A DNA stretch of 64,000 nucleotides from Gammaproteobacteria bacterium (GTDB lineage Bacteria; Pseudomonadota; Gammaproteobacteria; JAABTG01), in NCBI GenBank assembly GCA_034522055.1, contig JAXHLS010000002.1:2497549-2561548 (forward strand), read 5' to 3'. The notes beneath the pieces were generated by a model that worked only from the letters and a program-made list of their open reading frames with translations, was not told the origin of the DNA and did no database searches. The number at the start of each line of letters is the position of its first letter. The stretch's first letter is position 1. Shown one piece after another: positions 3,878-64,000 of the stretch. A program made the translations under genes and the position numbers.

Positions 3878-3878
3878 C

Positions 3879-4937
3879 ATGGCGCCGGTGGCCCCATGGC
3901 CGGGACGTGCTCTGACGACCCTGATGCTCCTGCCCTGGCTGGCGGCAGCGGTGGCCGGGGAGGTCATCAGCCGGTCCCATGTCCTACACCATGAGCTGGG
4001 GCCGGGGGAGGAGTTCGAGGGGATCAGGCTGCGGGGCGCCGTGGAGCTGGAGGCGGTGGACCTCGATGGCGTCGGCGTGGCGGGCCTCTCCGCGCTTGCC
4101 TGGGACGCGGATGAGGACCTGCTCTACGCCCTGTCCGACCGGGGGCGGATCTTCCACCTGCGGCCCCACATGGCGGACGGCATGCTGAAGGCGGTGGAGG
4201 GGCTGCGAGGGTTTCACCTGCGCAATGCCAACGGGCGTTACATCCCGCGGCGTCACGCCGATTCCGAGGGCATGGTGGCCCTCAATGCCGACAACGGCGT
4301 GCGCGGCGATACGCGGCTGGTGATCGGCTTCGAACAGACCCCGCGCCTGATGGTGTTCAGGCCGGACGGCCACTGGGCCGCCAGCTATGCCCTGCCCACC
4401 CCCCTCAGGCTGGTGGACAACTACAACCATCCCAACCGGGCTCTGGAGGCCGTGGCCTTCGTCGCGGGCGTAGGGCCGCTGACGGGACCGGAGCGCCCCT
4501 TCTGGAACGAGGCCGGGGAAGGGCTGAGGCTTTACGACCTCGAGGGGAATCACTGGCGCTACCCCCTGTCCCCGGACACCGACGCCTCCCTGGTGGCCAT
4601 GGAATACCTGCCGGAGCGGGACCTTCTCACCCTGGAACGAAGCTTCGTATCGCCGTTCCACCCCCTGCGCATCCGCCTGCGCCGCGCCGAACTCCCGGAT
4701 CACGCCGACGGAACCACCCTGGCGGTAGAGGAGGTGGCCCTGCTGGACAGCCATCGCGGCTGGAATATCGACAACTTCGAGGGCCTCGCCCATCATCGGG
4801 ATAATCGCTGGTTCATGGTGAGCGACGACAACGAGCGCGGCCTGCAGAAGACCCTGCTGGTGTATTTCGAGCTATTGGCGCGCCCGGACCAGGTGCCCCA
4901 CGTCGCCGCGGACAACCCTCCGCAGGAGCGCCGTTGA
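3879..4937 (+). CDS. secreted hypothetical protein (possibly phytase-like esterase family)
   Basis: ATG at 3879 directly after the preceding stop; N-terminal signal peptide MAPVAPWPGRALTTLMLLPWLAAAVAG; family assignment is from memory only. Confidence 0.45.
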   Translation: MAPVAPWPGRALTTLMLLPWLAAAVAGEVISRSHVLHHELGPGEEFEGIRLRGAVELEAVDLDGVGVAGLSALAWDADEDLLYALSDRGRIFHLRPHMADGMLKAVEGLRGFHLRNANGRYIPRRHADSEGMVALNADNGVRGDTRLVIGFEQTPRLMVFRPDGHWAASYALPTPLRLVDNYNHPNRALEAVAFVAGVGPLTGPERPFWNEAGEGLRLYDLEGNHWRYPLSPDTDASLVAMEYLPERDLLTLERSFVSPFHPLRIRLRRAELPDHADGTTLAVEEVALLDSHRGWNIDNFEGLAHHRDNRWFMVSDDNERGLQKTLLVYFELLARPDQVPHVAADNPPQERR

Positions 4938-4939
4938 AG

Positions 4940-5345
4940 CCCACCCGGCCCGGGGTGCGTGCGGCGGGGTTTGGATGTCGGGATGAATCCCGACCTACAA
5001 AAAGCGTAACCGCGAAAGACGCGAAATGACGCGAAAAGGGAGAAGGTCCGGGAGGAGTGGCAGTTCGAAAAGGCGCAGCGGATCCACCGTTTCGGCGTCA
5101 GCAGAGCGGACGCGCGGGTGGTAATCTTTTCCCATTTCCCATTTCCCATTTCCCCTGGGGAGAAGGACAGAGGCGTAGGTCGGCTGCTCTTGGCAGCCGA
5201 CGGAAACTCGGCGCTTTGCGGGCGCGGATGTCGGTTGCCAGGAGCAACCGACCTACATTCGTGCCCCGGGAACGTGCGGTGGTGGCGTACCTGTAGGTCG
5301 GGCTTCAGCCCGACAGCCCGCAGAGCCCGGGGTTCGCACGCAAGC
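4940..5345. repeat. composite REP-like intergenic element (copy A)
   Basis: Palindromes tcgggatgaatcccga and tcgggcttcagcccga; tandem (A/G)ACGCGAAA 9-mers; (CCCATTT)x3; ~330 bp about 95% identical to 22040-22360. Confidence 0.8.
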
Positions 5346-21962: not shown

Positions 21963-22486
21963 GTCGGGCTGTAGGTCGGACTTCAGTCCGACAGCCCGCG
22001 GCTGGTACCGCCCCGGCCCGGGGTGTGCGCGGCCGGCCTGAATGTCGGGATGAATCCCGACCTACAAAAAAGCGTAACCGCGAAAGACGCGAAATGACGC
22101 GAAAAGGGAGAAGGTCAGGGAGGAGGGGCAGTTCGAAAAGGCGCAGCGGATCCACCGTTTCGGCGTCAGCAGAGCGGACGCACGGGTGGTAATCTTTTCC
22201 CATTTCCCCTTTCCCCTTTCCCCTGGGGAGAAGGACAGAGGCGTAGGTCGGCTGCTCCTGGCGGTCGACGGAAACTCGGCGGTTTGCGGGCGCGGATGTC
22301 GGTTGCCGAGAGCAACCGACCTACATCCGTGCCGATGGAACAGGCGGTGGTGATGTATCTGTATGTCGGGCTGTAGGTCGGACTTCAGTCCGACAGCCCG
22401 CGGCTGGCACCGCCCCGGCCCGGGGTGTGCGCGGCCGGCCTGAATGTCGGGATGAATCCCGACACAGAGCGACACACCCTGCCGGT
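21963..22486. repeat. composite REP-like intergenic element (copy B)
   Basis: Same ~330-bp core as 4975-5300, flanked on both sides by gtaggtcgggctgtaggtcggacttcagtccgacagcccg palindromic units. Confidence 0.8.
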
Positions 22487-24419: not shown

Positions 24420-24680
24420 TTAAATTAACCAAGAAAATTAACTACGAAATACGCGAAAGACGCGAAATAAAAAGGCGACATTCGGAACGCCCGTCTGGAC
24501 CTCCAGCACCCTCGGCCCCATGGTGCCCGCGCCATTCCCGCACGGGGTAATCAGCATGTTTAGTGTCTTTCGCGTCTTTCGCGGTTAAGCTTTTCGCCGT
24601 TTCCCGTTTCCCGTTTCCCGTTTCCCGTTTCCCTTTTCGCGTCACTTCGCGTTTTTCGTGGTTGCCGCTTTTGATGTTCG
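24420..24680. repeat. rearranged REP-family element with a (GTTTCCC)5 tandem
   Basis: Inverted copies of the cgcgaaagacgcgaaa tandem; gtttcccgtttcccgtttcccgtttcccgtttccc; shares motifs with the elements at 4940 and 21963. Confidence 0.7.
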
Positions 24681-49330: not shown

Positions 49331-49525
49331 GCCCAGTCAGGCATATTCCTGTCCAGCGTCCGTATTCCGCCGTTGATCACGTGCAGCAGGCGCCGGATGT
49401 CGGGGCGCTGCTGCTGACAGGCACGCCGGCCGCTATGGCGTCGAGCAGCGTGTCAGTCATGGTGCTGCCGCCAAGGGTGGTTTCGAAGGCGAAAGCGGTA
49501 TCGTCGCGAATGGCTGCCCGCAGTC

Positions 49526-49708
49526 TGCGCCGCGGCTGGCATCGAGGATCTGCATTTCCGCGATCTGAGGCACGAGGCCACCAGCAGATTAGCCGAGTGG
49601 CTCCCGAACGTTATCGACTTAGCCGCGGTCACCGGCCAGCGGGATCTCCGAATGTTGGCCAGGTACTACCACCGGCGAGCGGGGGACTTGGCGCAGAAGC
49701 TCGGATAA
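49526..49708 (+). pseudogene. tyrosine recombinase (phage integrase) C-terminal remnant
   Basis: Frame translation gives ...AAAGIEDLHFRDLRHEATSRLAEWLPNVIDLAAVTGQRDLRMLARYYHRRAGDLAQKLG*, i.e. the HxxRH and LGH...Y catalytic-tyrosine motifs with no N-terminal body. Confidence 0.65.
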
Positions 49709-49791
49709 TGGACGTATCGACATTGTTGCTACACTCTGGGCGTTCATTTATTCTTCGGGTAGAGCGACGACTTGAGATGAGGTCTGCCGAG

Positions 49792-50040
49792 ATGAAAGTG
49801 ACAATAAAGAAGTGGGGAAACAGTGCCTCGATCCGTATTCCCGTGGCCATTATGCAGGCGGCCAAGCTACGTGTAGACGCAACGGTTGACGTTCGAGAAG
49901 AAGATGGTCGTGTTGTCATTGAGCCCGTTCCCGAGCCCGAGAAAGATTTCGATCTCGATGTGCTCATTTCGGGGATCACTTCAGACAATCTTCATGCCGA
50001 AATCGACTTTGGTCCCCCGGCCGGGAAGGAAACGTTGTAA
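49792..50040 (+). CDS. mazE: MazE/PemI-family antitoxin
   Basis: 82 aa; MKVTIKKWGNSASIRIPVAIMQAAKLRVDATVDV (SpoVT/AbrB swapped hairpin); TAATG overlap with the toxin gene. Confidence 0.75.
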   Translation: MKVTIKKWGNSASIRIPVAIMQAAKLRVDATVDVREEDGRVVIEPVPEPEKDFDLDVLISGITSDNLHAEIDFGPPAGKETL

Positions 50041-50393
50041 TGGCCAGGCCAAGGAAGGCGTATATCCCCGACACCGGCGATATTGTATGGCTCCATCTCG
50101 ATCCGAGAGTCGGGCATGAACAAGCCGGCCGGCGTCCTGTAGTGGTTTTATCTCCGGCGTCCTACAATGGAAAAACAAGCCTGATGCTCTGTTGCCCGAT
50201 GACAACGCAAATCAAAGGCTATCCATTCGAGGTCGAGATATCCGCCAGCAGACAAGGGGTAGCGCTCGCGGACCAAATAAAAAGCCTTGACTGGAGAGCG
50301 AGAAAAGCGACCAAGAAAGGGAACGTCACCTCAGAGGAGCTTTTTAAGATTCGACGTAAGACCCTGGCGCTGATTGGTTCCACGATTGCTTAA
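50040..50393 (+). CDS. mazF: MazF/PemK-family endoribonuclease toxin
   Basis: 117 aa; YIPDTGDIVWLHLDPRVGHEQAGRRPVVVLS ... CPMTTQIKGYPFEV. Confidence 0.8.
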   Translation: MARPRKAYIPDTGDIVWLHLDPRVGHEQAGRRPVVVLSPASYNGKTSLMLCCPMTTQIKGYPFEVEISASRQGVALADQIKSLDWRARKATKKGNVTSEELFKIRRKTLALIGSTIA

Positions 50394-51311: not shown

Positions 51312-51553
51312 TATCGTCTTCCTGCGCCAGCGTCTCGCTCAGGCGCAAGCCCATCGAGTAGGCTGCAATGCGCCGCACGGCGCGGGCACAGGCATCGATG
51401 GTCTTGTCGCTCATGCCCTGCTTCCCTTTCGGACCGGCCTGCCTTTATATCGACAGAATAACCTAATCTCGGTACAACATAATAACCTAGTAAGCGTGCA
51501 GCAGGAAAACCTTGCAAACACGACACAGAATAACCGAGCAACGAGGAAAACAG

Positions 51554-53107
51554 ATGGCCACCCCCTCCGAGAAGCTTGCCGAATCGCTTGAGGTCCTCAA
51601 GGCTCTCCAGAAGGAGGGTGCCGTTGCGATCCGGTCGGCCGGGCTTTCCCGTGTTCATCGTGAACGCCTGCTCAAGGGCGGCTTTCTGCAGGAGGTCATG
51701 AAGGGATGGTACATACCGGCCCGCCCGGATGAACCTGCCGGGGAGAGTACCGCTTGGTATGCCTACTTCTGGGGCTTCAGTGCCGCCTATCTTCGGGAGC
51801 GCTTCGGTGGCGCCTGGTGTCTGTCGCCTGAACAGTCCCTTCTGCTCCATACGGGAAACCGGACGGTTCCCGGCCAGCTCCTCGTTCGGACCCCAAAAGG
51901 GGGCAACAAGGTAACGAAGCTGCCTCACAATACATCGGTGCTCGATGTCCGGGTCGCTATGCCCGACCCAGAGGAGATCGTTGAACTCGACGGTCTACGG
52001 CTCTACGCAGTTTCGGCGGCACTGGTGTCCAGTACGCCCGGTTTTTACCGCCGGCATGCGACCGAAGCGCGCGCCGCCCTTGCCATGGTCGACGATGCCT
52101 CTGATCTTCTCCGTCCGCTGCTTGATGGCGGACACAGCACGATAGCCGGTCGTCTCGCCGGTGCCCTGCGAAACATCGGACGCGACCGTATGGCCGAGGA
52201 GATCGTCAAGACCATGCAGGCTGCCGGTTATACCATCCGTGTGGACGATCCTTTTGAAGCGGCAGCGACCACGCTGCCGGCTCCACGCGAGGTCTCGCCC
52301 TGTGTGAACCGCTTGCGCCTCATGTGGGAAACCATGCGGGTAGCGGTTATTGAGCGCTTTCCTGTGGCCCCGGGTCTGCCGGGAAGGCCAGGAGATTATC
52401 TAAAGGACGTGGAAGAAATCTATGTCACCGATGCTTACCACTCCCTGTCAATCGAGGGATACCGGGTCAGTGCCGAGCTGATCGAGCGCGTACGCAGCGG
52501 CAACTGGAACCCTGACGGGTATGCCGGTGATCGCGCGCACCTTGATGCCCTCGCCGCGCGCGGCTACTGGCAGGCTTATCGTGCCGTGCATGACAGTGTG
52601 GAGAGCGTGCTGGAGGGCAAGAACGCAGGGACTGTCGCCGACCAGGATCACGGCACGTGGTATCGAGATATGTTTGCGCCGAGTGTCACCGCCGCTCTGG
52701 TTCGCCCAGCCGACCTCGCCGGATACCGCAACGAACAGGTCTATATACGGCGTTCAAGGCACGTGCCGCCCCGGCGTGAAGCCGTCCGCGAAATGATGCC
52801 CGATTTTTTCGAGTTGCTGGCCGGAGAAGCAGAGCCCGCCGTTCGGGTCGTTCTTGGCCACTTCGTGTTCGTCTACATCCATCCCTATTTGGACGGCAAT
52901 GGGCGTATGGGAAGGTTTTTGATGAATGTCATGCTTGCCTCGGGCGGCTATCCATGGACCGTCATTCCCCTTGAGCGACGCGATGTCTACATGGCGGCGC
53001 TTGAAGAAGCGAGCGTGAGGCAAGACATTCGGCCGTTCGCGGAGTTTCTGGCCGGTTTGGTCGAGACAAGACTTCAGGGCCAGGCCACAGCGAAACGGCC
53101 ACGATAG
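51554..53107 (+). CDS. Fic/Doc-family protein
   Basis: 517 aa from MATPSEKLAE (GAGGAAA RBS); canonical Fic motif HPYLDGNGRMGRFL near the C-terminus; long N-terminal extension. Confidence 0.8.
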   Translation: MATPSEKLAESLEVLKALQKEGAVAIRSAGLSRVHRERLLKGGFLQEVMKGWYIPARPDEPAGESTAWYAYFWGFSAAYLRERFGGAWCLSPEQSLLLHTGNRTVPGQLLVRTPKGGNKVTKLPHNTSVLDVRVAMPDPEEIVELDGLRLYAVSAALVSSTPGFYRRHATEARAALAMVDDASDLLRPLLDGGHSTIAGRLAGALRNIGRDRMAEEIVKTMQAAGYTIRVDDPFEAAATTLPAPREVSPCVNRLRLMWETMRVAVIERFPVAPGLPGRPGDYLKDVEEIYVTDAYHSLSIEGYRVSAELIERVRSGNWNPDGYAGDRAHLDALAARGYWQAYRAVHDSVESVLEGKNAGTVADQDHGTWYRDMFAPSVTAALVRPADLAGYRNEQVYIRRSRHVPPRREAVREMMPDFFELLAGEAEPAVRVVLGHFVFVYIHPYLDGNGRMGRFLMNVMLASGGYPWTVIPLERRDVYMAALEEASVRQDIRPFAEFLAGLVETRLQGQATAKRPR

Positions 53108-53677: not shown

Positions 53678-56600
53678 CCCGTACTCAGGCCACGGCTGAA
53701 TGCCGCGGATAACGGGCTGGTGGATGAGGGATACCGCCCCGGCCGCAAACAGCTTCAGTGAGGCCGCGGCTGAAAGCCGCGGATAACCAAGACCAAGCCC
53801 GCGGGCAAGCTGGCGGATGTGGTGCTTCAATGAGGCCGCGGCTGAAAGCCGCGGATAACTGGAAACGAATGGGCCGGGGGGCACGGAGCCGCACCCGCTT
53901 CAATGAGGCCGTGTTGTTTCGCGGCTGAAAGCCGCGGATAACGGTGTTGGCCTCGCCGGCGGCGTAGGCGGGGCCCATGCTTCAATGAGGCCGCGGCTGA
54001 AAGCCGCGGATAACCCAGCTTGTGGGTGAAGGCCTACCGCAGCAAGAACCAGCTTCAATTAGGCCGCGGCTGAAAGCCGCGGATAACGCCGGGGCGCAGG
54101 TGGGGCGGGACGTCGGCGGCATCGCTTCAATGAGGCCGCGGCTGAAAGCCGCGGATAACCACTCAGGACCTTGCGCAGATTGCAAGTTTTCCGCGGCTTC
54201 AATGAGGCCGCGGCTGAATGCCGCGGATAACAGGGCGTGGCCTACGACCAGGTGAAGTGGATCGAGGTGGCTTCAATGAGGCCGCGGCTGAATGCCGCGG
54301 ATAACCCGAGAATGGTGTTTGCGCTCGCACGGTCTGTTGCCGCTTCAATGAGGCCGCGGCTGAATGCCGCGGATAACCCGGCATGTCCACCGGAACGACA
54401 CCAGTAATGGCCAGGCTTCAATGAGGCCGCGGCTGAATGCCGCGGATAACGCGTATATTCGGCGTCTGCTCGCTCCTCCAGATACGGCTTCAATGAGGCC
54501 GCGGCTGAATGCCGCGGATAACGGCCGAGGCCGCGTATCTGGGCCTGCAATCCATCGCGGCTTCAATGAGGCCGCGGCTGAATGCCGCGGATAACCCAGC
54601 ACACAACCCATGCCAGGACGGCTACAGCGGGCTTCAATGAGGCCGCGGCTGAATGCCGCGGATAACGAGGCCTGGGCGTACTGGCTCAAGGTCAAGGCAA
54701 CGCTTCAATGAGGCCGCGGCTGAATGCCGCGGATAACTCGGCATCGTCGCAATCAGCGGCGTGTTTGAGTTCCCGCTTCAATGAGGCCGCGGCTGAATGC
54801 CGCGGATAACGCGCCGGAAGGGTACAGTTCCACCGCCGCGCAAAATGCTTCAATGAGGCCGCGGCTGAATGCCGCGGATAACCTGGCCGCGGGCGAGGAG
54901 GTGGGCGTCATCGACAGGCTTCAATGAGGCCGCGGCTGAATGCCGCGGATAACAAGCGGGCCGAGGGTCTGAGCCGCAGCCTGCAAATCGCTTCAATGAG
55001 GCCGCGGCTGAATGCCGCGGATAACGGTCTACCTCCCGCACACCGAGGGCCTGAATACCAAGCTTCAATGAGGCCGCGGCTGAATGCCGCGGATAACCTT
55101 CGGCGTGAGGCTGGAACCACTTCCTGTCATTCGGCTTCAATGAGGCCGCGGCTGAATGCCGCGGATAACGCCAGACAAATGAGGCCACCTACAGGAGACA
55201 CCATGCTTCAATGAGGCCGCGGCTGAATGCCGCGGATAACAGCGAGGAGGCCCTGAGGACCACTGTGACGCAAGATGCTTCAATGAGGCCGCGGCTGAAT
55301 GCCGCGGATAACGCAGACCCTGGAAGCGGCACCAGTGGACACAGGCGGCTTCAATGAGGCCGCGGCTGAATGCCGCGGATAACGCACGGGCACGGGTGGT
55401 CAGGGGTCGCACGGGCTTAGCTTCAATGAGGCCGCGGCTGAATGCCGCGGATAACGCACGGGCACGGGTGGTCAGGGGTCGCACGGGCTTAGCTTCAATG
55501 AGGCCGCGGCTGAATGCCGCGGATAACTGCGAGGCGAGATTCGCCAGGGCGGAGCAGGTGACGCTTCAATGAGGCCGCGGCTGAATGCCGCGGATAACCG
55601 GTAACGGCGTGACCGTGCTCGACGTGGACATTGCGGCTTCAATGAGGCCGCGGCTGAATGCCGCGGATAACCAGAGCATGGACAGCAACATGCCGGACCT
55701 GTAGCGCTTGCTTCAATGAGGCCGCGGCTGAATGCCGCGGATAACGTACTTGGTGTTCCCGTAGGCTACGTGGCGGTCCTTGCTTCAATGAGGCCGCGGC
55801 TGAATGCCGCGGATAACTCCACCTGCCCGACGACGTGGACGAGGACTACTGCGCTTCAATGAGGCCGCGGCTGAATGCCGCGGATAACGATGCCTGTAAG
55901 GGATATGACGGCGGTCTTTACAGAGCTTCAATGAGGCCGCGGCTGAATGCCGCGGATAACGGTGCCAGGTGTTCCCGTCCGCCGGGTCGCCGCCGAGCTT
56001 CAATGAGGCCGCGGCTGAATGCCGCGGATAACATCGGGTAGTAGGTTCTCCTCTTGAAGATTTTTCATGCTTCAATGAGGCCGCGGCTGAATGCCGCGGA
56101 TAACCACGTGGTGGCCCTGGCTCCCAACTCACCTACACTAGGCTTCAATGAGGCCGCGGCTGAATGCCGCGGATAACCCAGGGTATGCAGACGGCGCTTG
56201 AGGTCTCGCCGCAGCTTCAATGAGGCCGCGGCTGAATGCCGCGGATAACATGGAAGAACGGGCCTTCAGGGCGACAGACTACGCAGGCTTCAATGAGGCC
56301 GCGGCTGAATGCCGCGGATAACTGGTCTGCCACACCACCACGGGCGTCACCAGGTACACGCTTCAATGAGGCCGCGGCTGAATGCCGCGGATAACGTACT
56401 TGTCGAATAGCCAGGCCTGCTTGGCCTCGGTGCTTCAATGAGGCCGCGGCTGAATGCCGCGGATAACATCGCCGACAGCAACAAACTCCGCCGGATCGCC
56501 ATCGCTTCAATGAGGCCGCGGCTGAATGCCGCGGATAACTTGCGGCATCCCGCCGCGAATCACCCCCGGAGGTTGCCGCTTCAATGAGGCCGCGGCTGAA

Positions 56601-56828
56601 TGCCGCGGATAACCCTGTACGACAGAGATGGGCCACGCGTTGACGGTATGCTTCAATGAGGCCGCGGCTGAATGCCGCGGATAACTACGAACCGCCGAAG
56701 ATCTTGCTGACCCTCCTTAAGCTTCAATGAGGCCGCGGCTGAATGCCGCGGATAACGCCGCAATACTTGCTTCGCGGGAGGAGACATAAGATGCTTCAAT
56801 GAGGCCGCGGCTGAATGCCGCGGATAAC
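53678..56828 (-). CRISPR. CRISPR array, 44 repeats of 36 bp (plus strand GCTTCAATGAGGCCGCGGCTGAATGCCGCGGATAAC), ~35-37 bp spacers
   Basis: Minus-strand repeat GTTATCCGCGGCATTCAGCCGCGGCCTCATTGAAGC has a 7-bp stem and ends in an ATTGAAGC 5'-handle-like 8-mer; the AT-rich leader and cas2 are at the 56.8-kb end; the first ~7 repeats at the 53.7-kb end are degenerate (AAAGCC for AATGCC, and one 46-bp repeat with an insertion). Confidence 0.95.
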
Positions 56829-57053
56829 CGCCCCTCCCCGAACCAAGGGCCGGCGGGGCCTGCCGGCGGGTCTTGCGAGCGGTGCGGGTTTCTGGCCAAT
56901 GGTCATCATGCCATTCTCATGTGGGGCTGGAAATGGTTTATGTAATTGATTGTTTGTTAAAGAGCATCCGGGCTGCGAGCGGTCCCCGGGGTTTTCGGTG
57001 CCACCGGACCGCTCGCGGCACCCAGGCGGAGCCCGGCGTCGCCGGCAACCGCT
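56829..57053 (-). promoter_or_regulatory. CRISPR leader
   Basis: Between cas2 and the newest repeat; contains the AT-rich tract atggtttatgtaattgattgtttgttaaagag. Confidence 0.6.
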
Positions 57054-57344
57054 TCAGACTATGGTAGGTACTCTTTCCACCAGATTGAAGTCCTTTCCCA
57101 GGCTGGTGACCCGCGGTTCGACCTTGTCGGCCACTCCGATGTCCACCAGCAACACGTGGTCGGCGTCATGGTGGATGATCTGGTCGAGCATGGCGATGAG
57201 GTCCGCATGGCGGCGCCGGGACAGGCGACACTGGAAAACGGACAGTTGGAGCCATTCGCCGTAGCCCTTCATGGTCTTGAAGACCGCGCGCCAGCGCCGG
57301 GGATCGGCGATGTCATAGGAAACGATGTAGAGGTGTTCGTCCAT
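57054..57344 (-). CDS. cas2: CRISPR-associated endoribonuclease Cas2
   Basis: 96 aa; MDEHLYIVSYDIADPRRWRAVFKTMKGYGEWLQLSVFQCRL is a canonical Cas2 N-terminus. Confidence 0.9.
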   Translation of the reverse strand: MDEHLYIVSYDIADPRRWRAVFKTMKGYGEWLQLSVFQCRLSRRRHADLIAMLDQIIHHDADHVLLVDIGVADKVEPRVTSLGKDFNLVERVPTIV

Positions 57345-57350
57345 GGCCGG

Positions 57351-59060
57351 TCACCGGGTCGTGAAATTGGGATTGTCGTCGAGGTCGCCGAGCAGGTAGC
57401 GGCCAAGCAACCGGCCCTGGAGTTCCAGCAGCCGCCGGTAACTGAGCCGGTAGCCGAAGATCGGATGGGTGATCTCCTGGCTTAGGCGACGCTCGTACGC
57501 GGTGATGAAACGCTTGCGGCCATCCGGGGTGAGGTTCACGGCGCCTGCGGCGGTGACGAAATCCGATGGCCGCACCTCGCCATTATTGATGGCCTGGATG
57601 ACGCTGGAGTCGGCGAGCAGGGGTCTGAAGGGTTCCATCATGTCCAGGGCGAGGGCAGGGCGGCCATATCTGGGCTGATGATAGAAGCCGCGAAAGGGGT
57701 CGAAGCCCACGGCTCCGAGGGTAACCGCCCAGGTGCGGGACAGCAGCGAATAGGCATAGGACAACAGTGCATTGACGGGGTCGCGGGGCGGGCGCCGGTT
57801 GCGCTGGGTGAAGTCGAAGGCGAAGGTGGCCTCCGGGGTCTCGGCCTTCAAAAGGTTTCGGAAAGCACCGAAGTACTTTGCCGCGGCGCTGCCCTCGATG
57901 CCGAGCAGCTCCTCAAGATTGCGGCAGCGCAGGGCCTCTTCCGAAAGGTGCTTGAGGTCTCTGAGCAGCCGTTCCGGCTTCTCGTCGAGGCGCCAGTTGC
58001 GGCGCAGCAGGGTGCGGCTGTTCTGGATCTTAGCCCGTACCCAGCCCTTCGCCAGATGCAGGCAGACTTTCTCGTCGAAGCTCTCCCGATACTGAGCGGT
58101 GCGCAACTCCACGTTTTTGTGACCGTTGCCGATGGAGTGGCCGAGGAACCAGCCGCCATAGCTGTGCCAGGTGACGGGGATATCCCTGCGCATGAGCTCG
58201 TGGAGGGTGGGCGTCGTGAGATAGACGTTGCCCATGAGGACCACCTGGGAGATGTCGATCAATCGCACATGAGCCGCCGGTTTGTCATCGACGGAGACTT
58301 CCAGGGTCTCACCCTTCTTGCGCACCGCCGCCTTGTTGGCCTGGACATACAGTGGCAGGGCCTCGTCCCGCCCCACGGCAAGGGGGCGAGGGGGTGTTTC
58401 GGTTCGCCGCAGATAGTTGACCTCGTCCGGCAGGCAGATCCCCACCAGCGAGCAACGCGGACACTTGGGGCTGTCTTCCAAGGGCACCGGCATGCGCCCT
58501 CCGACAGCCACCAGACGCAATCCGTTGACGGCCGAGCGGGTACGATTGCGCAACTCCTCGTCGAATTCGACGGTTACCCGTTCCTTCGACTCGACGAAGT
58601 AGAGGATGCCATGGTCGCAATGGTAACCATGCTCCTCGAGAATGAGGCCCTGCACGCAAAGCTGCACCCGCTCGGGTTCGTAGGCACCCTTGGCGACGTG
58701 GGGGCGCTTGCCCCGCTTGTAGTCCACGGGTACCACTTCTTCCCCCTCGCCCTCCACCAGGTCCAGCTTGGCGATGAGCCCGATCTTGCGGGAGGACAGG
58801 GTAATGGACTTGGCATGGAAGGTCTCGTATTCCTCGGCCTCCCCAGGGTCCGGCAGCTTGCCGCCAGGCTTGTCCACCCGGCGATGCCGGTATCGCCCTT
58901 CCACCGTATCGGCGGAGTCCGCCCATTCCCCCTGGACCCATTCCAGATAGGCCAGGCGCGGGCAGTATTCGTACTCGTTGACCATGCGCGCCGGCAGCAG
59001 CGGCAGGTCTTCGGACAACTCCGGGAAGCTGAAGGGCAGTTCAGGTTGCTGGTCGGTCAT
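57351..59060 (-). CDS. cas1: Cas4-Cas1 fusion protein
   Basis: 569 aa; N-terminal Cas4 RecB-like nuclease with 4Fe-4S cysteines (YEYCPRLAY ... CPRCSLVGIC); C-terminal Cas1 (NALLSYAYSLL ... MMEPFRPLLAD); this fusion is the hallmark of type I-U/I-G. Confidence 0.9.
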   Translation of the reverse strand: MTDQQPELPFSFPELSEDLPLLPARMVNEYEYCPRLAYLEWVQGEWADSADTVEGRYRHRRVDKPGGKLPDPGEAEEYETFHAKSITLSSRKIGLIAKLDLVEGEGEEVVPVDYKRGKRPHVAKGAYEPERVQLCVQGLILEEHGYHCDHGILYFVESKERVTVEFDEELRNRTRSAVNGLRLVAVGGRMPVPLEDSPKCPRCSLVGICLPDEVNYLRRTETPPRPLAVGRDEALPLYVQANKAAVRKKGETLEVSVDDKPAAHVRLIDISQVVLMGNVYLTTPTLHELMRRDIPVTWHSYGGWFLGHSIGNGHKNVELRTAQYRESFDEKVCLHLAKGWVRAKIQNSRTLLRRNWRLDEKPERLLRDLKHLSEEALRCRNLEELLGIEGSAAAKYFGAFRNLLKAETPEATFAFDFTQRNRRPPRDPVNALLSYAYSLLSRTWAVTLGAVGFDPFRGFYHQPRYGRPALALDMMEPFRPLLADSSVIQAINNGEVRPSDFVTAAGAVNLTPDGRKRFITAYERRLSQEITHPIFGYRLSYRRLLELQGRLLGRYLLGDLDDNPNFTTR

Positions 59061-59352
59061 GGTGGACGTATTCCGTTAGCCCGCGTTCACCCGTGCAGAG
59101 GTTACTCGGGTCATCGCCATCGCGCTAACGGCTGCTCGCGCGGCCGTGACCGGCGAAGCTCGACAATCGCCGCCGGGTATGGCCCGGATGCTCTTCGTGT
59201 CGTGGCGCTGGAAAGGACGCATGGCACGAAACAAGAAAGTGCTCTGAATGGGCGATGCGACGAGCCGTGAGGAATTTTCCCTGGGGTGTAATGCCGTTCT
59301 AATACACGACAAGAGCTGTCCAAACGGAATATCGGCTTCGCTCCTGGCGTGT

Positions 59353-60213
59353 TCATTGCGGTACAAACATTCCCAAGCCAAAGTGACAGCCGAAGCCGAG
59401 TGCGAGCGGGCCGCCTATTGGTTCTGAAAACTCGATCTGCCAGAAGCTGCCGTGTCGATCGGGTTGGCTGAGGCCACGTCGGGCGCGGATGCGGTGGAAG
59501 TGAAGCGGGTAGCGGTCACGGCCACCAATAGAGATTGACGGCAGGCGCTCGATTCGTAGGGGTTTGGGGAACCCTCGCTCCCCGCATTCTCGCCGAATCT
59601 GGTCCTCTACGGTGAAGCCGTTCTTGGCGTGCCAGGGGTGCAGATAGGGCGTAACCGAGGTCCATTCTCGGCTTGGCTCTACCAGGGAACCACCGACCCC
59701 AACTCCACCAATACCTTCCAGGATCAAGCGCCATTTACCACCGTCCCGCTGCCAGATCTTACGCAACCTCCCGATGATGAGGCGTTGGTCTCCAGAGAAC
59801 CCAGCCGGAACGTGGATCACCGCACGATTCAGGTAGCCATGGCCGCTGCTGTCATAGGGCAGATAGAATGCGTGTTGATGCCGATTGCCTTGGGGCAGAT
59901 CGTGGCCGGAAAAGATGGGAGGTGCAGAGTAGCGCCCGGCCTCGTCCTTACCGAAGGCACTCATCACAGCCCAGCGCAGCAACTCACCGATACGGAGACT
60001 GTCCTCTACGCGCGGCAGCGGCTTTCCGACCAACAAGAAGCGGGCGGTGGTGAACATAGGAAAGGCTGCCTTGTGGTTCGTCCAATCAGGCGGGGACCTG
60101 CTTGGTAGCTGCAGGCAATCGGCCCGGTGGCCACTCATGAGGAGGATACTCACACAAGGCTCGCATCCTGGAATATTGGTATGGCCGTCATCGCTTGGCT
60201 GAGTGGTATTCAT
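59353..60213 (-). CDS. CRISPR-associated RAMP protein (Cas5/Cas6-like, Csb2-like?)
   Basis: 286 aa; C-terminal glycine-rich loop LALGFGCHFGLGMFVP typical of Cas5/Cas6/Cas7 RAMPs; located between cas3 and cas4-cas1; subfamily not resolved. Confidence 0.55.
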   Translation of the reverse strand: MNTTQPSDDGHTNIPGCEPCVSILLMSGHRADCLQLPSRSPPDWTNHKAAFPMFTTARFLLVGKPLPRVEDSLRIGELLRWAVMSAFGKDEAGRYSAPPIFSGHDLPQGNRHQHAFYLPYDSSGHGYLNRAVIHVPAGFSGDQRLIIGRLRKIWQRDGGKWRLILEGIGGVGVGGSLVEPSREWTSVTPYLHPWHAKNGFTVEDQIRRECGERGFPKPLRIERLPSISIGGRDRYPLHFHRIRARRGLSQPDRHGSFWQIEFSEPIGGPLALGFGCHFGLGMFVPQ

Positions 60214-60298
60214 CTCTTATTTGTGCGTAATGGTTGGAGACGCCGCTTCTGCGATTGATTCTTATCCGATGTTTGTCAGAGCCGGTATGCTGGATTCA

Positions 60299-61237
60299 CT
60301 ATAAGACTTCGCTTGGTGCGAAATTGCCATAGCCTCCCTGATCGGAGCGGTGGATACGCGATTGCAGGACGCAGCCAATGCCACGAGCCACTCGCTCGCG
60401 CGCCCTCATATCGGGCAAGCCCGGCAGGTTCATCAGAACCTCGGCAGTGCGTATGGTGCAATCCCGCGTCCATAGGGGCCAGCGGAAGCCACCGTTTTTC
60501 CAACCGCCATAACAGCCAGTGGTTACCAGCCTTGTACCCACAGCGAAGCTGCGTAGTACGGCCAAGCCGCGAAAAGCGAGCCAATCGGCACCGGGTACGC
60601 CGAGCTTCTTGTCGGTCGAAGGATTGCTGGCACGGAGGGCGTAGTCCCGAGTCACGGTCGAGTCCCATCCGAGCACTGGCATCGGCCGGGAGTAGGTCCA
60701 CGGTCCAAACAGCGCTTCTGCAAGGTCCTCCCTGGTAACTCCCTTTCCGTCATATCCAGCGAGAGTTGCTGCCATGTGAAGAAATTCCTGTTGCCCGGCA
60801 GTGAAATGCAATGGAAAAGGCTTTGTGGCCCCGTTGTTATCGACTACACCCTCGGCCGCGAACGCTGCGGCGTACTGCGCCGCTCGTCTTCCCTTGGCTG
60901 AGTCTTCATCAAGCAGCTGCTGGAGGTAGGCACGGAAGCGGGGCGGTGGTGGTTTCAGGTCCCACGCGAGCCTTTCAGGTTTGTCCTTGTGCTTCGGATA
61001 CCGCAGGTCTAATGTTGCATCGTGGGGCCAGCAAATAGTTGCATCAGCTTCCAGGAAATCCAGAAGCTCTTCACGGTTGAGCAAACTGCACAATTGCGGT
61101 ATCCAGGTTCCGTCTTGCCGCCAAGTTAACCGCGGGGCTTCGCCAGACTGTTCACTCAAAACTCGCAGCGCGCCCATTGCAGCCAGAAACCCTAACGGGT
61201 TGGTTCCGTCCAGTCCAGGCAATACCAATGTGTTCAT
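60299..61237 (-). CDS. CRISPR-associated effector subunit (possibly Cas7/Csb1-like)
   Basis: 312 aa; start overlaps the cas3 stop (translational coupling); position and size fit the Cas7 slot of I-G loci; no motif-level confirmation possible here. Confidence 0.45.
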   Translation of the reverse strand: MNTLVLPGLDGTNPLGFLAAMGALRVLSEQSGEAPRLTWRQDGTWIPQLCSLLNREELLDFLEADATICWPHDATLDLRYPKHKDKPERLAWDLKPPPPRFRAYLQQLLDEDSAKGRRAAQYAAAFAAEGVVDNNGATKPFPLHFTAGQQEFLHMAATLAGYDGKGVTREDLAEALFGPWTYSRPMPVLGWDSTVTRDYALRASNPSTDKKLGVPGADWLAFRGLAVLRSFAVGTRLVTTGCYGGWKNGGFRWPLWTRDCTIRTAEVLMNLPGLPDMRARERVARGIGCVLQSRIHRSDQGGYGNFAPSEVL

Positions 61238-64000
61238 AGGTTTCCTCTTTCCTCCTGCTCGCTGCGTCGGTGGTCAGCGAGACGCAGGATGGCTTCAACC
61301 CAGGCCAGTCCGTGGCTTCCGTAACGCTCAGTCAGGATGAAGAAGCGGTCGCTAACCCCCGAGTCAAGGGCGGCGAGGCCATGGTCAGTCGACGCACTGA
61401 GTGCGGCCCCGTCCAATTCAATTTTGATTTGAACTGGTTCGCCAACCGACTCAGGCTCCACGGGCGCCAAGGGTCGGCAGTGGCCGTGATGTGACGCGAC
61501 CAAGTACAGCACTAGGTCCCAGTCATTTGCCTTGGCGCGCACGTGTTCGGCGTCCTGCAACAACGCGAGGGAGATCAGTTCATGCCGGGTGCCGACGGGG
61601 TAATCTGCGCGGCGTCGGGCTTCGGCCTCCTGGCGGCGATTACGACCGCTCACGGCTGATTTGGCCAGCGCCTCAGGTGCGGTCAGGGCGCGGTATTCGC
61701 TCCCACCGTGTAGCAGGCATTGGAAGCGCGAGTCGTGCTTGCCGAGGTCGTGCAACTGGCCAGCGAGGCGCAGATCCTGCACCAAGGGCTCCGGTAGGCC
61801 GCAACGACGCGCAAATCCCTCGGCTAGTCGGCCGACGCCGGCAAGATGTTTGCGTAGCGGGGCGGCCTTGCCGATGAGGGACAGCTCGTCGCCATCCAAT
61901 GCCAAGTCAGGACTGACAAGTCCCGTCACGGGGTTCGCCGATTTAATAATCCGGCGTGAGATTAACACCCAGCTGTCTCCGATTTGGTGGCCTTTGACGC
62001 GGATTAGTCGCGGACCGTCGCGTTGCGCCAATTCTTCGAGCAATATGCGAATCGCATCGGCGCGGATGTCCCGGATTCCGGTTTCCGCTACCACGTTGCC
62101 GGCGTGTTCGGCAAGGAAACGCCGGATTTGCCCCCGATCGTCGGTGTCCTGCTCCGCGTCACCCTCTATGGGAACAGGCGGTTCGCTGCCTGGCCAGAGC
62201 CGACTGTCCAGACGGAGTACAGCGCGTCCGCGTTGCTGCAAGTGAGCGGCGTCTGCGAGGTCTGTAACCGGCTCCGCTGCACCGGGATCCCAGTTGCCGG
62301 AACGGATTCCGCCGTAATCAATCGGAACGATCACGGTATCCCAGGCTTTGATTACTGTCGAACGGATTGCCTGGGCTTCTCCGTTGCGTATAACCAGTGC
62401 AGGGCGCCCATGAGGCTGCTCGGCTTTCGTCGCTTCGGGTGTGTGCCTCTCTACGTCCGCAAGAGCCGCATCGGAATCCGGATCGGTACCGAGCAGCCAC
62501 CCCTTCGCAGCCCATACGGGGACGGCTAGACTCTCCGACGTTAGAGGCGGGCAGGCGTCGAGGCGCTCTGCGAGCGCCCTGGAGATCGGTGTATCCTTTT
62601 CTCCATTGGCGTTCTCGCGTGCTGCGACTTCCAACTCTGTTTCTTCCAGATCTGCTCGCCAAACGACCCTTACTTCGGCCGACGATTCCCGGGGGCCGTG
62701 TAGCCAGAGGGCGACGTCTGGGTCGGGATAGGGGACTGGTGCAGTCTGGCTCCAAGCGTCCAAGTGCGCGGGCAACAGAATAGGGGAAGTAGTTACGGGG
62801 GTCAGAAGCCGCACCAGATCGTTGCGCTTAGGCAGCGTCAGCCCCTCGGAGCCAAAGTCGACCTGCTGAAGAGAGCAAAGGTAGTTCCAAGTCGCGGCTG
62901 CGGCTGTTCCGTAGATCGGGTCGTCCCCGTCGATATCGCTCCGTGCGAATATGGTGCCCGCGGCGTTGTCCAGGTCGCCGGCCCGGTTCAGGCGCCCGAA
63001 GCGTTGGCGCAGGGCGTCGAGGCTGGCGCACTCGGTGAGAAGAATATCGAAGTCGAAGTCGGCGCCTGCCTCAATGCATTGGGTGGAGACCAGCACCACG
63101 GCGTCCAGGGTGGCGTCGCGGCTGCGACCAGTTGTAAGTCGGGCTTGGAGCTTTTTCTCCAATTCTTGGCGATCCAACGGGCGCATGCGGCTCGTCAACA
63201 GCCAAGTGTTCGCAGCCAGACCGCGTGCCGTGAGGTCGGCGTAAATGAGTCGGGCAGCTTGCACTCGGTTTACGACCACGCCAACGGCATTGCCCGGCTG
63301 AATGGCGTCCACCGCGGCGGCAGCCATTTGCTCGGCCAGAACAGTCAGCCGGCGCGACTCGCCGCCGCTGACCTTGACCATCTTAAGGTTGGTCGGCTTT
63401 CGCGCTACGAGGCGGCGGCGAAGGACCCCATTGTTTAGGTCGGCGGCATCCAGCCTGAACGGCTTCGCACCGTCCTCGTGGTGCGTTGCGGATAGCTCTA
63501 CCAACTGGAAGCGCCTTGGTAGTCGGGAGCCTATCCGGTCGGCGTGATAGCGCTCCAGCATTCGCAGCGTATCGCAGAACGGGCGTGCCAGGTGCACCTC
63601 GTCCAGCATAAACAATATGTCGTTACCCAGCAGTCCGGCATGTACCGGACGCATTCCCTCGCTGACACCATAGCCTCGGAAGAACAAGCGTGAACCGACT
63701 TGATCGACGGTAGAAATCAACACGGTCGGTTGTGCAGGGTTGGCTGCCCAAGTGTCGTCGCGCTGGACGGCGCCACGCAACAGGGCAACGTGTAGCGGCT
63801 CGTGGGTGCCCGCGAGGCGGATCAACTGATCAGCCACGCGCCGGACGACTGAATCCGGTTTGCTGTCAGCGAGTACGTTAGCGAGCTTGATCGCCCGCGC
63901 GAAGGATTGATCCGCCACGGTGCGCCGATCCACTACGAAGGCGATTCGGCAAGGCAGGCGTTGTCGGCCGGCCGCGAGGTCCGCCGCCAGAGCGAATACG
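61234..64000 (-). CDS. cas3: Cas3 helicase with C-terminal HD nuclease domain (N-terminus beyond the window end)
   Basis: More than 920 aa in window; DExH motif LFMLDEVHL; C-terminal HD motif LHDLGKHDSRFQ ... LYLVASHHGH; a C-terminal HD is characteristic of type I-G/I-U Cas3. Confidence 0.85.
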   Translation of the reverse strand, partial: VFALAADLAAGRQRLPCRIAFVVDRRTVADQSFARAIKLANVLADSKPDSVVRRVADQLIRLAGTHEPLHVALLRGAVQRDDTWAANPAQPTVLISTVDQVGSRLFFRGYGVSEGMRPVHAGLLGNDILFMLDEVHLARPFCDTLRMLERYHADRIGSRLPRRFQLVELSATHHEDGAKPFRLDAADLNNGVLRRRLVARKPTNLKMVKVSGGESRRLTVLAEQMAAAAVDAIQPGNAVGVVVNRVQAARLIYADLTARGLAANTWLLTSRMRPLDRQELEKKLQARLTTGRSRDATLDAVVLVSTQCIEAGADFDFDILLTECASLDALRQRFGRLNRAGDLDNAAGTIFARSDIDGDDPIYGTAAAATWNYLCSLQQVDFGSEGLTLPKRNDLVRLLTPVTTSPILLPAHLDAWSQTAPVPYPDPDVALWLHGPRESSAEVRVVWRADLEETELEVAARENANGEKDTPISRALAERLDACPPLTSESLAVPVWAAKGWLLGTDPDSDAALADVERHTPEATKAEQPHGRPALVIRNGEAQAIRSTVIKAWDTVIVPIDYGGIRSGNWDPGAAEPVTDLADAAHLQQRGRAVLRLDSRLWPGSEPPVPIEGDAEQDTDDRGQIRRFLAEHAGNVVAETGIRDIRADAIRILLEELAQRDGPRLIRVKGHQIGDSWVLISRRIIKSANPVTGLVSPDLALDGDELSLIGKAAPLRKHLAGVGRLAEGFARRCGLPEPLVQDLRLAGQLHDLGKHDSRFQCLLHGGSEYRALTAPEALAKSAVSGRNRRQEAEARRRADYPVGTRHELISLALLQDAEHVRAKANDWDLVLYLVASHHGHCRPLAPVEPESVGEPVQIKIELDGAALSASTDHGLAALDSGVSDRFFILTERYGSHGLAWVEAILRLADHRRSEQEERGNL

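Follow-up and report, generated by a model that had tools for sequence, protein, structure and literature searches.

Introduction

The closest described counterparts of the locus analysed here are the type I-G CRISPR-Cas systems of Sorangium cellulosum So ceGT47 and other myxobacteria, which represent the Cas8u1 sub-variant and for which the gene order csb1-csb2-cas3-cas8u1 has been published (PMC11237760). Canonical type I-G loci, such as those of Thioalkalivibrio sulfidiphilus and Geobacter sulfurreducens, are ordered cas3-cas8g/csx17-cas7/csb1-csb2-cas4/1-cas2 (PMC9638904, PDB 8B2X). In the Csb3 type, found in Bifidobacterium animalis and in Acidihalobacter ferrooxydans (locus L007), the order is cas3-csb3-csb1-csb2. 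When the Cas6 domain of Csb2 was isolated (R262 to the end), it was folded and cleaved the repeat, and its binding to the hairpin was tighter than that of full-length Csb2; it did not support the assembly of Cascade in vitro (PMC9638904).

Here we describe a locus in a 64,000-nt stretch of DNA ("the window") from a gammaproteobacterial metagenome-assembled genome. It has the same gene families in the same order as the myxobacterial Cas8u1 systems and shares with them the cas3/cas8u1 overlap, the Cas4/Cas1 fusion, and a 36-nt repeat that ends in TTGAAGC, the published type I-G form. It differs from them in its host, since the described Cas8u1 systems are myxobacterial, and in an added ORF for a Cas6 domain between cas8u1 and cas4/cas1.

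Results and Discussion

Locus architecture and subtype

We put the probability at about 0.87 that the locus is a complete type I-G system of the Cas8u1 sub-variant with one extra gene, the Cas6-domain ORF, and that the window takes in its 3' two-thirds. The window end interrupts the cas3g gene (61234..64000, - strand, TIGR02621), which encodes a helicase with a C-terminal HD nuclease: the reading frame stays open up to base 63999, and the gene runs off the edge. The earlier note on this DNA had proposed a look beyond that edge, and this proved decisive. A public Logan contig from SRR26473340 (L001) matches the window with 0 mismatches over 7,202 nt and extends past base 64000. Immediately upstream of cas3g it carries csb1/cas7g (427 aa, L001 positions 2074-3357), followed by a full-length csb2 (cas5/6g, 565 aa, L001 positions 3354-5051). 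Both genes lie outside the window and are known from this contig, the link being the 7.2-kb identical overlap. The contig also completes Cas3g, a protein of 978 aa whose gene starts 170 nt beyond base 64000 and whose HD domain occupies residues 772-906. The full order that we propose is csb1(cas7g)-csb2(cas5/6g)-cas3g-cas8u1-[Cas6-domain ORF]-cas4/cas1-cas2-leader-array, all on the - strand.

Against TIGR02621, the in-window part of Cas3g scores 621 bits and the full protein 735 bits (cut-off 400). The resident Csb2 scores 256.9 bits against TIGR02165 (cut-off 45), covering model positions 1-491 of 492, and Csb1 scores 69.7 bits against TIGR02570 (cut-off 38) and also matches PF09617. The cas4-cas1 fusion (57351..59060, - strand, 569 aa) matches the type I-G specific model NF049935 (cas4g_cas1g) with 841 bits (cut-off 560), and cas2 (57054..57344, - strand, 96 aa) matches TIGR01573 and PF09827. 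On this sequence evidence the subtype is type I-G (formerly I-U), because Cas3g, Cas4g/Cas1g, Csb1, Csb2, and the Cas3-adjacent family pass curated NCBIfam cut-offs and the repeat is of the kind found in type I-G. The locus thus shows the csb2 signature, Csb1, a Cas3 with C-terminal HD, Cas4-Cas1 with Cas2, and the hairpin-forming repeat. The earlier note had named the same subtype and had pointed to the C-terminal HD of Cas3 and to the Cas4-Cas1 fusion, both of which we recover.

The order csb1-csb2-cas3-cas8u1 is seen in essentially all of the 80 species-level loci that we surveyed. Relative to canonical type I-G, csb1-csb2 of the window locus precede cas3, and its Cas3, Csb1, and Csb2 are all longer. 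A promoter and terminator scan of positions 56700-61400 found no signals on the - strand.

The 312-aa protein

Between cas3 and cas4/cas1 the earlier note had counted two ORFs, of 312 and 286 aa, which are both present (60299-61237 and 59353-60213), and it had found none able to encode a large subunit of ~700 aa, with which we agree. The 312-aa ORF (60299..61237, - strand) is coupled to the cas3 stop as described there: its ATG overlaps the stop by 4 nt (ATGA), and such an overlap is seen in most related loci. We assign this ORF to cas8u1, a short type I-G large subunit. Its product matches NF049934 over the full length with 325 bits (cut-off 65; profile positions 1-298 of 299) and the PADLOC model PDLC01514 with an E value of 4.6e-73. 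NF049934 is named in NCBIfam "type I-G CRISPR-associated protein, Cas3-extension family"; it includes the Sorangium So ceGT47 protein, and nearly every member listed is about 300-315 aa long. The predicted fold is Cas8-like, and the first ~60 residues align with the N-terminus of Csx17 in tblastn. Family membership and predicted fold together show, at the level of a structural model, that Cas8u1 is a large subunit of which only the part equivalent to the N-terminal domain of Cas8g/Csx17 remains, and the same predicted-fold argument would equate the NCBI "Cas3-extension" family with the N-terminal domain of Cas8g.

In canonical loci the large subunit has about 650-800 aa; in the window locus no such Csx17 follows cas3. 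None of the locus proteins matches the Csx17 models, L001 holds no Csx17-sized gene, and a tblastn search with three Csx17 proteins of the window and the extended contig found nothing beyond the ~60 residues in cas8u1. By its length and fold, Cas8u1 appears to lack the C-terminal Cas11-like helical domain of canonical Cas8g, and since the Cas3-extension family is predicted to hold only the N-terminal domain of Cas8g, the sub-variant appears to work without a Cas11-like C-terminal domain. The Csb3-type loci likewise have a large subunit of ~300 aa beside cas3 together with a csb1/csb2 backbone, but theirs belongs to PDLC00996 and not to PDLC01514. In five loci (L017, L041, L060, L067, and L076), long ORFs were considered as Cas3-Cas8u1 fusions; the idea was dropped, because the G+C-rich DNA there holds ORFs that overlap in different reading frames.

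The CRISPR array and crRNA processing

Pattern searches delimit a CRISPR array (53678..56828, - strand) of 43 detectable 36-nt repeats with 35-38-nt spacers, and Rfam CRISPR-DR16 matches it on the - strand above the gathering threshold. The 44 repeats of the earlier note fit this count if a 119-nt gap within the array (53860-53978) conceals, as is probable, one decayed repeat. In transcribed orientation the repeat reads GTTATCCGCGGCATTCAGCCGCGGCCTCATTGAAGC. The 37 leader-proximal repeats are identical and the distal ones degenerate; because the identical repeats are those nearest to cas2 and the degenerate ones those farthest from it, we place the leader between cas2 and the first (newest) repeat (56829..57053, - strand), where the sequence contains an A/T-rich stretch. 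The 36-nt repeat ends in ...ATTGAAGC, and it is predicted to fold into a 7-bp stem with a 5-nt loop and a 12-nt tail, the latter made up of 4 nt and an 8-nt AUUGAAGC handle. This geometry matches that reported for type I-G (PMC9638904). No protospacers were found when the entire array was compared by megablast with phage and plasmid collections, and two exact-core scans of viral contigs for spacer targets gave no match, so that activity of the system has no support from spacer targets.

From the families present, a working scheme can be proposed. The array would be transcribed from the leader, each repeat would form its 7-bp hairpin, and a Cas6-type domain would cut 4 nt 3' of the stem, as in Thioalkalivibrio type I-G, to leave the 8-nt handle. 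Csb1 would form the backbone along the crRNA, with Csb2 gripping the 3' hairpin. [quoted passage not shown] Cas8u1, which is translationally coupled to Cas3g, probably links Cas3 to the complex and contributes to recognizing the PAM. Cas3g would then unwind and degrade the target, as expected of its family, while Cas4/Cas1 and Cas2 would acquire spacers.

The 286-aa ORF

Apart from the 286-aa gene (59353..60213, - strand), nothing about the locus is unusual: it is complete and represents a type I-G sub-variant that is already known. Family, homolog, and fold evidence identify this ORF as a stand-alone Cas6 ribonuclease domain. It matches only positions 229-491 of the 492-position Csb2 model, and no frame carries a Csb2 N-terminal half for it. 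Its fold is the two-RRM fold of Cas6 with a C-terminal glycine-rich loop; the protein ends in GFGCHFGLGMF, the glycine-rich loop already recognized in the earlier note. Of 71 conserved residues, 70 are retained. His277, in the glycine-rich loop, is invariant in canonical Csb2 and is the probable equivalent of the catalytic H503 of T. sulfidiphilus Csb2. The Csb2 homology is restricted to positions 59356-60060. Residues 1-50 show no relationship to Csb2, and disorder is predicted for them; the real start is likely the ATG at 60057 (M53), giving a product of 234 aa. No convincing ribosome-binding site was found at either candidate start codon.

The 286-aa ORF is 62-74% identical to canonical Csb2 queries, whereas canonical Csb2 and the matching region of the resident csb2 are only about 30% identical. 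A tandem copy of the locus's own csb2 was rejected on these values. The comparison shows that the ORF derives from a second Csb2, one of the canonical (Csx17-associated) type, of which it retains the Cas6 domain, the cut lying at the Cas5/Cas6 boundary; the R260/R262 boundary used experimentally (PMC9638904) coincides with its breakpoint. Compared with its full-length sister, the ORF has 19 unique changes versus 17, which shows no rate acceleration, and its dN/dS against locus L002 is 0.12. Most probably, the ORF entered when an effector cassette of the Cas8u1 type recombined with a canonical type I-G locus. Set against the experimental Cas6 domain of Csb2 (PMC9638904) and the stand-alone Cas6 proteins of types I-A, I-B, III, and IV, the domain in the window is a natural separate ORF, and this putative Cas6 coexists with a full-length Csb2 of another subfamily.

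These assignments bear on how the interval had been explained before. A type I effector made of two small proteins, the 312-aa and 286-aa products, without a Cas7/Cas5 backbone or a large subunit would have been remarkable, and the window alone indeed shows no further effector genes. The claim fails nonetheless, as the apparent restriction to two small effector genes is an artefact of the window edge: on the identical L001, csb1/cas7g and a full-length csb2 immediately precede cas3, both genes are present in 80/80 related loci, and one of the two small proteins, that of 312 aa, is a large subunit of the Cas8 type. We consider a natural minimal effector practically excluded. A deletion of cas8 fails as well, the 312-aa protein being a known short Cas8u1. 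It is just as implausible that a frameshift split one Csx17/Cas8u2 gene into an N-terminal and a C-terminal half, seen here as the two ORFs. Their summed length of ~630 aa is near that of Csx17, and the ~60 N-terminal residues do align; however, the HMM searches that had been suggested place the 312-aa protein end to end in the NF049934 family, for which it has full length, and the 286-aa protein with Csb2 and Cas6 rather than Csx17, and the three-protein tblastn finds nothing else in the interval. Very improbable, too, is an assembly chimera of two community type I-G loci at the junction of cas8u1 and the Cas6 domain. The source is a metagenome-assembled genome, a single genome can carry type I-G loci of two kinds, and an assembler could be misled where repeats or cas4/1 are shared. 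Against this, the 7.2 kb of the SRR26473340 contig cross both junctions without a mismatch and the same protein is found on a 3.7-Mb NCBI contig, assemblies that possibly come from the same reads; moreover, the stretches flanking the junction (60061-60298 and 59061-59352) are unique and not repeats, and the complete genome of Acidihalobacter (L007) has an analogous junction.

Cas6-only copies in other type I-G loci

Sequence comparison indicates that type I-G loci have given rise to Cas6-only copies on several independent occasions. Independent cases occur in the Csb3-type L007, where the ORF stands before cas4/1 as in the window, in the Csx17-type L008 and L009, and in the Cas8u1-type L010 and L095. 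The last two share one common junction and have diverged with a dN/dS of 0.18 at a dS of 0.79; by this measure, the copies of that lineage evolve under purifying selection. The window, L007, and L008 have independent junctions, and all three lie no more than about 3 residues from one and the same domain boundary. Of 114 cluster representatives, 25 start between -7 and +39 residues from the boundary, and about 20 start elsewhere, spread over residues 60-239. In L007 the short ORF overlaps the preceding csb2 stop by 4 nt. L010 is a clear cassette replacement in a canonical locus, with cas3_c remaining on the left and, on the right, FitA/PIN and a csb2 preserved from codon 209 onward. We take these loci as evidence for the replacement of one type I-G effector cassette by another within a locus, and the Cas6-domain-only Csb2 derivatives as a recurrent and apparently undescribed class.

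The ORF is absent from the closest relatives of the window locus (L094 and L011), whose spacer between cas8u1 and cas4/1 is unrelated to the window's, and from 60 of the 65 species-level Cas8u1 loci with enough downstream sequence; in Minicystis (L053) only a 71-aa relic lies between cas8u1 and cas4/1. The short Cas6 forms do not group as one clade, each being nearest to a full-length Csb2. The Cas4/1 of the window is 75% identical to that of the canonical L091, 71% to L007, and 70% to the Cas8u1-type L011, values too close for Cas4/1 similarity to decide on a chimeric origin.

Working nuclease or scar

We somewhat favor the view that the 286-aa ORF is expressed as a stand-alone RNase that binds and cleaves the repeat. 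There is also a considerable chance, if below even, that it is an inert scar, namely, the 3' half of the resident canonical csb2 left beside cas4/cas1 after recombination with a Cas8u1 cassette and undecayed so far. Such a remnant would suit the vacant position in most Cas8u1 loci and the unrelated spacer of the closest relatives, the relic in Minicystis, the replacement in L010, and the polyphyly of the short forms, which have no long-lived clades; the lack of a clear ribosome-binding site, the 50 unrelated N-terminal codons, and the ease with which ORFs survive in G+C-rich DNA point the same way. It is harder to reconcile with the coincidence of the three independent junctions, the sharp excess of cluster representatives that start at the domain boundary, the retention of the short gene in L010 and L095 at a low dN/dS, and the 4-nt overlap in L007. 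The nearly complete set of conserved residues and the absence of rate acceleration in the window ORF also speak against a scar, although an intact state and a normal substitution rate are likewise expected after a recent truncation.

A distinct repeat was rejected as the reason for a separate Cas6: the repeat of the Cas8u1-type L015 is nearly the same as the window's, differing in the loop only, with the same stem and handle. In contrast to canonical Csb2, the resident Csb2 lacks the G-loop histidine, but it keeps an invariant histidine elsewhere, in RVLTHVYVEF. Given this histidine and the near-identical repeat in Cas8u1-type loci, a separate nuclease is not obviously needed.

If the 286-aa ORF does encode a working RNase, a broader scheme may be offered tentatively. 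Cas6-only genes may recur when a canonical Csb2 is cut at the Cas5/Cas6 linker, often via cassette replacement, and may then be kept as working pre-crRNA nucleases beside a full-length Csb2 of another subfamily. The window locus would be a two-nuclease hybrid whose Cas6 domain, having arrived with the adaptation module and the array, may cut for the resident Csb2 with its missing G-loop histidine. Active Cas6-only derivatives would represent a natural fission of the Cas5-Cas6 fusion and could provide a compact, tight-binding repeat RNase for the development of type I-G tools. A full-length second csb2 occupies the same position in five Pseudonocardiaceae species, with 62-91% identity.

A Complete Type I-G Locus

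Every cas gene of the window lies on the reverse strand: cas2 (57054-57344, 96 aa), a cas4-cas1 fusion (57351-59060, 569 aa), an ORF with a Cas6 domain (59353-60213, 286 aa), cas8u1 (60299-61237, 312 aa), and cas3, the stop codon of which is overlapped by the ATG of cas8u1 (ATGA). The cas3 gene, from 61234 to the window end, is partial: with its reading frame still open at base 63999, it is cut by the window. The earlier note had read this interval as two small effector genes with no large subunit. Its coordinates, ORF lengths (312 and 286 aa), glycine-rich C-terminus, and cas3 coupling were all correct on re-inspection, and the interval holds no ORF long enough for a protein the size of Csx17. 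The claim of only two effector genes, however, arose from the cut at the window end, and looking past that point, as the note proposed, revealed the others. A search for exact copies of the 312-aa protein retrieved a 12.4-kb public Logan contig (L001); its 7,202-nt overlap with the window is identical throughout, and it reaches 5.2 kb beyond base 64000. It carries a complete cas3 (978 aa; TIGR02621, 735 bits) and, immediately upstream, csb1/cas7g (427 aa; TIGR02570, 70 bits, cut-off 38) and a full-length csb2 (565 aa; TIGR02165 positions 1-491 of 492, 257 bits, cut-off 45), which gives the order csb1-csb2-cas3-(312)-(286)-cas4/1-cas2-leader-array. The locus is thus a complete type I-G of the known Cas8u1 sub-variant, and the finding as originally worded is largely explained away.

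The CRISPR array (53678-56828, reverse strand) has 43 detectable 36-nt repeats with spacers of 35-38 nt. The 119-nt gap at 53860-53978 probably holds a repeat decayed beyond 10 mismatches, in agreement with the previous count of 44. The 37 repeats adjoining the 225-nt leader are identical and the distal ones degenerate; the uniformity near the leader suggests that the locus is active. The six oldest recognizable repeats (53678-54159) are mutated, by a T-to-A change in the loop or otherwise; the terminal one has 7 mismatches. One spacer sequence is present twice. The repeats match Rfam CRISPR-DR16 on the reverse strand and are predicted to fold into a hairpin (7-bp stem, 5-nt loop) followed by a 12-nt tail that ends in AUUGAAGC. 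We found no protospacers for the array in phage and plasmid collections or in viral contigs.

The 312-aa Protein as a Short Large Subunit

The 312-aa protein matches NCBIfam NF049934 ("type I-G CRISPR-associated protein, Cas3-extension family") end to end (E 4.5e-97) and, with E 4.6e-73, a Cas8g model of PADLOC that bears the label "CAS-I-U; effector_LS". Homologs number at least 1,560; among the 120 matches listed, nearly all are about 300-315 aa, and a protein of Sorangium cellulosum So ceGT47 is included. In a 2024 myxobacterial survey, type I-G interference modules consist of csb1-csb2 followed by cas3-cas8u1 or cas3-csx17, and So ceGT47 is named as a carrier of both (PMC11237760). Shangguan et al. 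likewise distinguish three type I-G variants by large-subunit size (PMC9638904). An AF2 model built with 25 homologs as input is confident (pLDDT 85, pTM 0.89), and Csx17 residues 1-59 align to residues 1-62 of the protein (E 7e-4). From its length, the mixed alpha/beta model, and this N-terminal match, we infer that the protein would correspond to the N-terminal domain of Cas8g, lacking the Cas11-like C-terminal domain. A separate second Cas8 match is to type I-A (7r2k_Y). A caveat concerns chain 8b2x_M, which is, we suspect, largely a fitted AF2 model. Its density is poorly resolved (PMC9638904).

A Cas8u1 profile scan with one genome per species yielded 80 loci, annotated using the window locus's own proteins as queries. 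The order csb1-csb2-cas3-cas8u1 holds nearly everywhere, and cas4/1-cas2 is found downstream, or else upstream and divergently oriented. In 46 of the 80 loci the stop codon of cas3 overlaps the start of cas8u1 by 4 nt, and in ~75 the two are no more than about 10 nt apart, a tight coupling that fits the finding that type I-G Cascade contains Cas3 as a stable subunit (PMC9638904). Apparent Cas3-Cas8u1 fusions in the ORF table proved to be overlapping frames and were rejected.

A Second, Canonical-Type Cas6 Domain

The 286-aa ORF matches only the C-terminal half of Csb2, the Cas5-Cas6 fusion (TIGR02165 positions 229-491 of 492; PADLOC Cas56g positions 220-448 of 449, E 3.7e-60), which excludes the suggestion that the two ORFs are halves of a split Csx17. 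Its nearest homologs are Csb2 proteins of about 495 aa (up to 74% identity) from canonical cas3-csx17-csb1-csb2-cas4/1-cas2 loci (L002, L004-L006, L091, L093). A local csb2 duplicate can be eliminated as its source because canonical Csb2 queries are 62-74% identical to it, versus ~30% to the matching region of the resident csb2. Homology, in protein and DNA, runs from 60052-60060 (P0002 residue 259) through the stop codon, and an ATG (M53, base 60057) lies one codon past its start; the flanks 60061-60298 and 59061-59352 match nothing in any sequence fetched. According to Shangguan et al., the Cas5 and Cas6 domains of Csb2 meet at R260; on its own, the C-terminal domain folds, cleaves the repeat, and binds the hairpin with higher affinity than the full-length protein, but cannot support complex assembly (PMC9638904). 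Of the 71 positions in the Cas6 domain at which 104 full-length relatives show at least 95% conservation, the ORF keeps the residue at 70, the GFGCHFGLG histidine among them. By sequence, it encodes the Cas6 domain of another Csb2, one of the canonical type.

We favor, at roughly 55%, the reading that this copy is an expressed, active Cas6; that it is an inert scar is a serious alternative, to which we give somewhat less than even odds. A scar would agree with the lack of a convincing ribosome-binding site and with its absence elsewhere: the closest relative (L094, Cas8u1 69% identical) has an unrelated 286-nt spacer between cas8u1 and cas4/1, L011 also lacks the ORF, and among 65 species-level loci whose downstream sequence is long enough, the site is empty in 60 and holds a 71-aa relic in one. 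Moreover, each short Cas6 form is closest to full-length Csb2, never to another short form, and the repeat stem and handle of Cas8u1-type loci are the same. On the other hand, Cas6-only ORFs arose independently in loci with each of three large-subunit types: Csb3 (L007, the complete genome of Acidihalobacter ferrooxydans), Csx17 (L008/L009), and Cas8u1 (L010, L095, and the window), with three of those junctions no more than ~3 residues from one linker position. Among 114 representatives covering the Cas6 domain from its start, examined from a search of 1.84 billion cluster representatives, 25 have their first residue between -7 and +39 relative to the boundary, and only ~20 begin, spread out, at residues 60-239; the remainder are full length. 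L010 and L095 share a junction and a homologous 47-nt spacer, and have since diverged with dN/dS 0.18 at dS 0.79. The window copy shows no sign of having evolved faster than its full-length sister (19 vs 17 unique substitutions; dN/dS 0.12). Finally, five Pseudonocardiaceae species keep a second full-length csb2 at the equivalent position, with 62-91% identity that tracks the divergence of their Cas3 and Cas8u1. We found no description of a Cas6-domain-only gene or its recurrence across type I-G loci, which we consider of modest interest.

The five Pseudonocardiaceae MAG loci (L077, L081, L086, L088, L090) have a canonical-type csb2 of 456-484 aa between cas8u1 and cas4/1 on top of the usual one ahead of cas3, in what looks like a stable sub-variant with two Csb2 proteins. 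In L053 (Minicystis rosea CP016211), the 71-aa ORF just downstream of cas8u1 matches only residues 244-283 of the window protein and looks like a decayed relic of a similar extra csb2.

Probable Origin by Cassette Replacement

L010 plainly shows the mechanism: a Cas8u1-type cassette has replaced part of a canonical type I-G locus. Both ends of L010 still match the canonical locus L099, cas3 on the left and, on the right, csb2 from codon 209 followed by FitA/PIN. Between them, csb1-csb2-cas3-cas8u1 stands in place of csx17-csb1-5'csb2, so that L010 carries cas3 twice, together with a Cas6-only ORF starting exactly at the junction. The window locus has a different junction and its Cas8u1 is only 29% identical to that of L010, and hence it most probably represents an independent event of the same kind. 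It contains no further canonical remnants, and Cas4/1 similarity does not decide the source of the adaptation module. L010 (7908-8706) and L095 (552-1362) share 88% DNA identity at the cas3 3' end and 80% across the Cas6 gene, with only 33% protein identity in the cas8u1 body between; the large subunit seems either hypervariable or exchanged, perhaps under PAM or anti-CRISPR pressure.

Resident Csb2 and Neighboring Genes

In the resident Csb2 (L001 3354-5051) and 14 other loci, mostly Cas8u1-type, the C-terminal glycine-rich loop lacks its histidine, with canonical GFGCHFGLG changed to GAGRF/YLGLG in the Cas8u1-associated subfamily. Another invariant histidine lies ~14 residues upstream (..RVLTHVYVEF..). 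The catalytic site may have moved, or the protein may not cut.

Extra genes also accompany the compared loci (L008/L009 4277-5164 and 10885-11682; L010 10525-11424): in L008/L009, cas3 and csx17 are separated by a gene for a KilA-N domain protein, and in L008 as well as L010 the short Cas6 ORF is followed by one for an ST7/TPR protein. The window locus is itself set among toxin-antitoxin and mobile genes (window 49381-50393, 51512-53107, and 43416-44549; L001 137-1838), with MazE/MazF, a 531-aa Fic/DOC protein, and an IS110 transposase on the array side and BrnT/BrnA and PIN/PhdYeFM upstream of csb1. Elsewhere in the window, tandem heptamers (TTTCCCA, TTTCCCC, TTTCCCG) occur in up to 7 copies at 5128-5154, 22196-22224, and 24592-24642.
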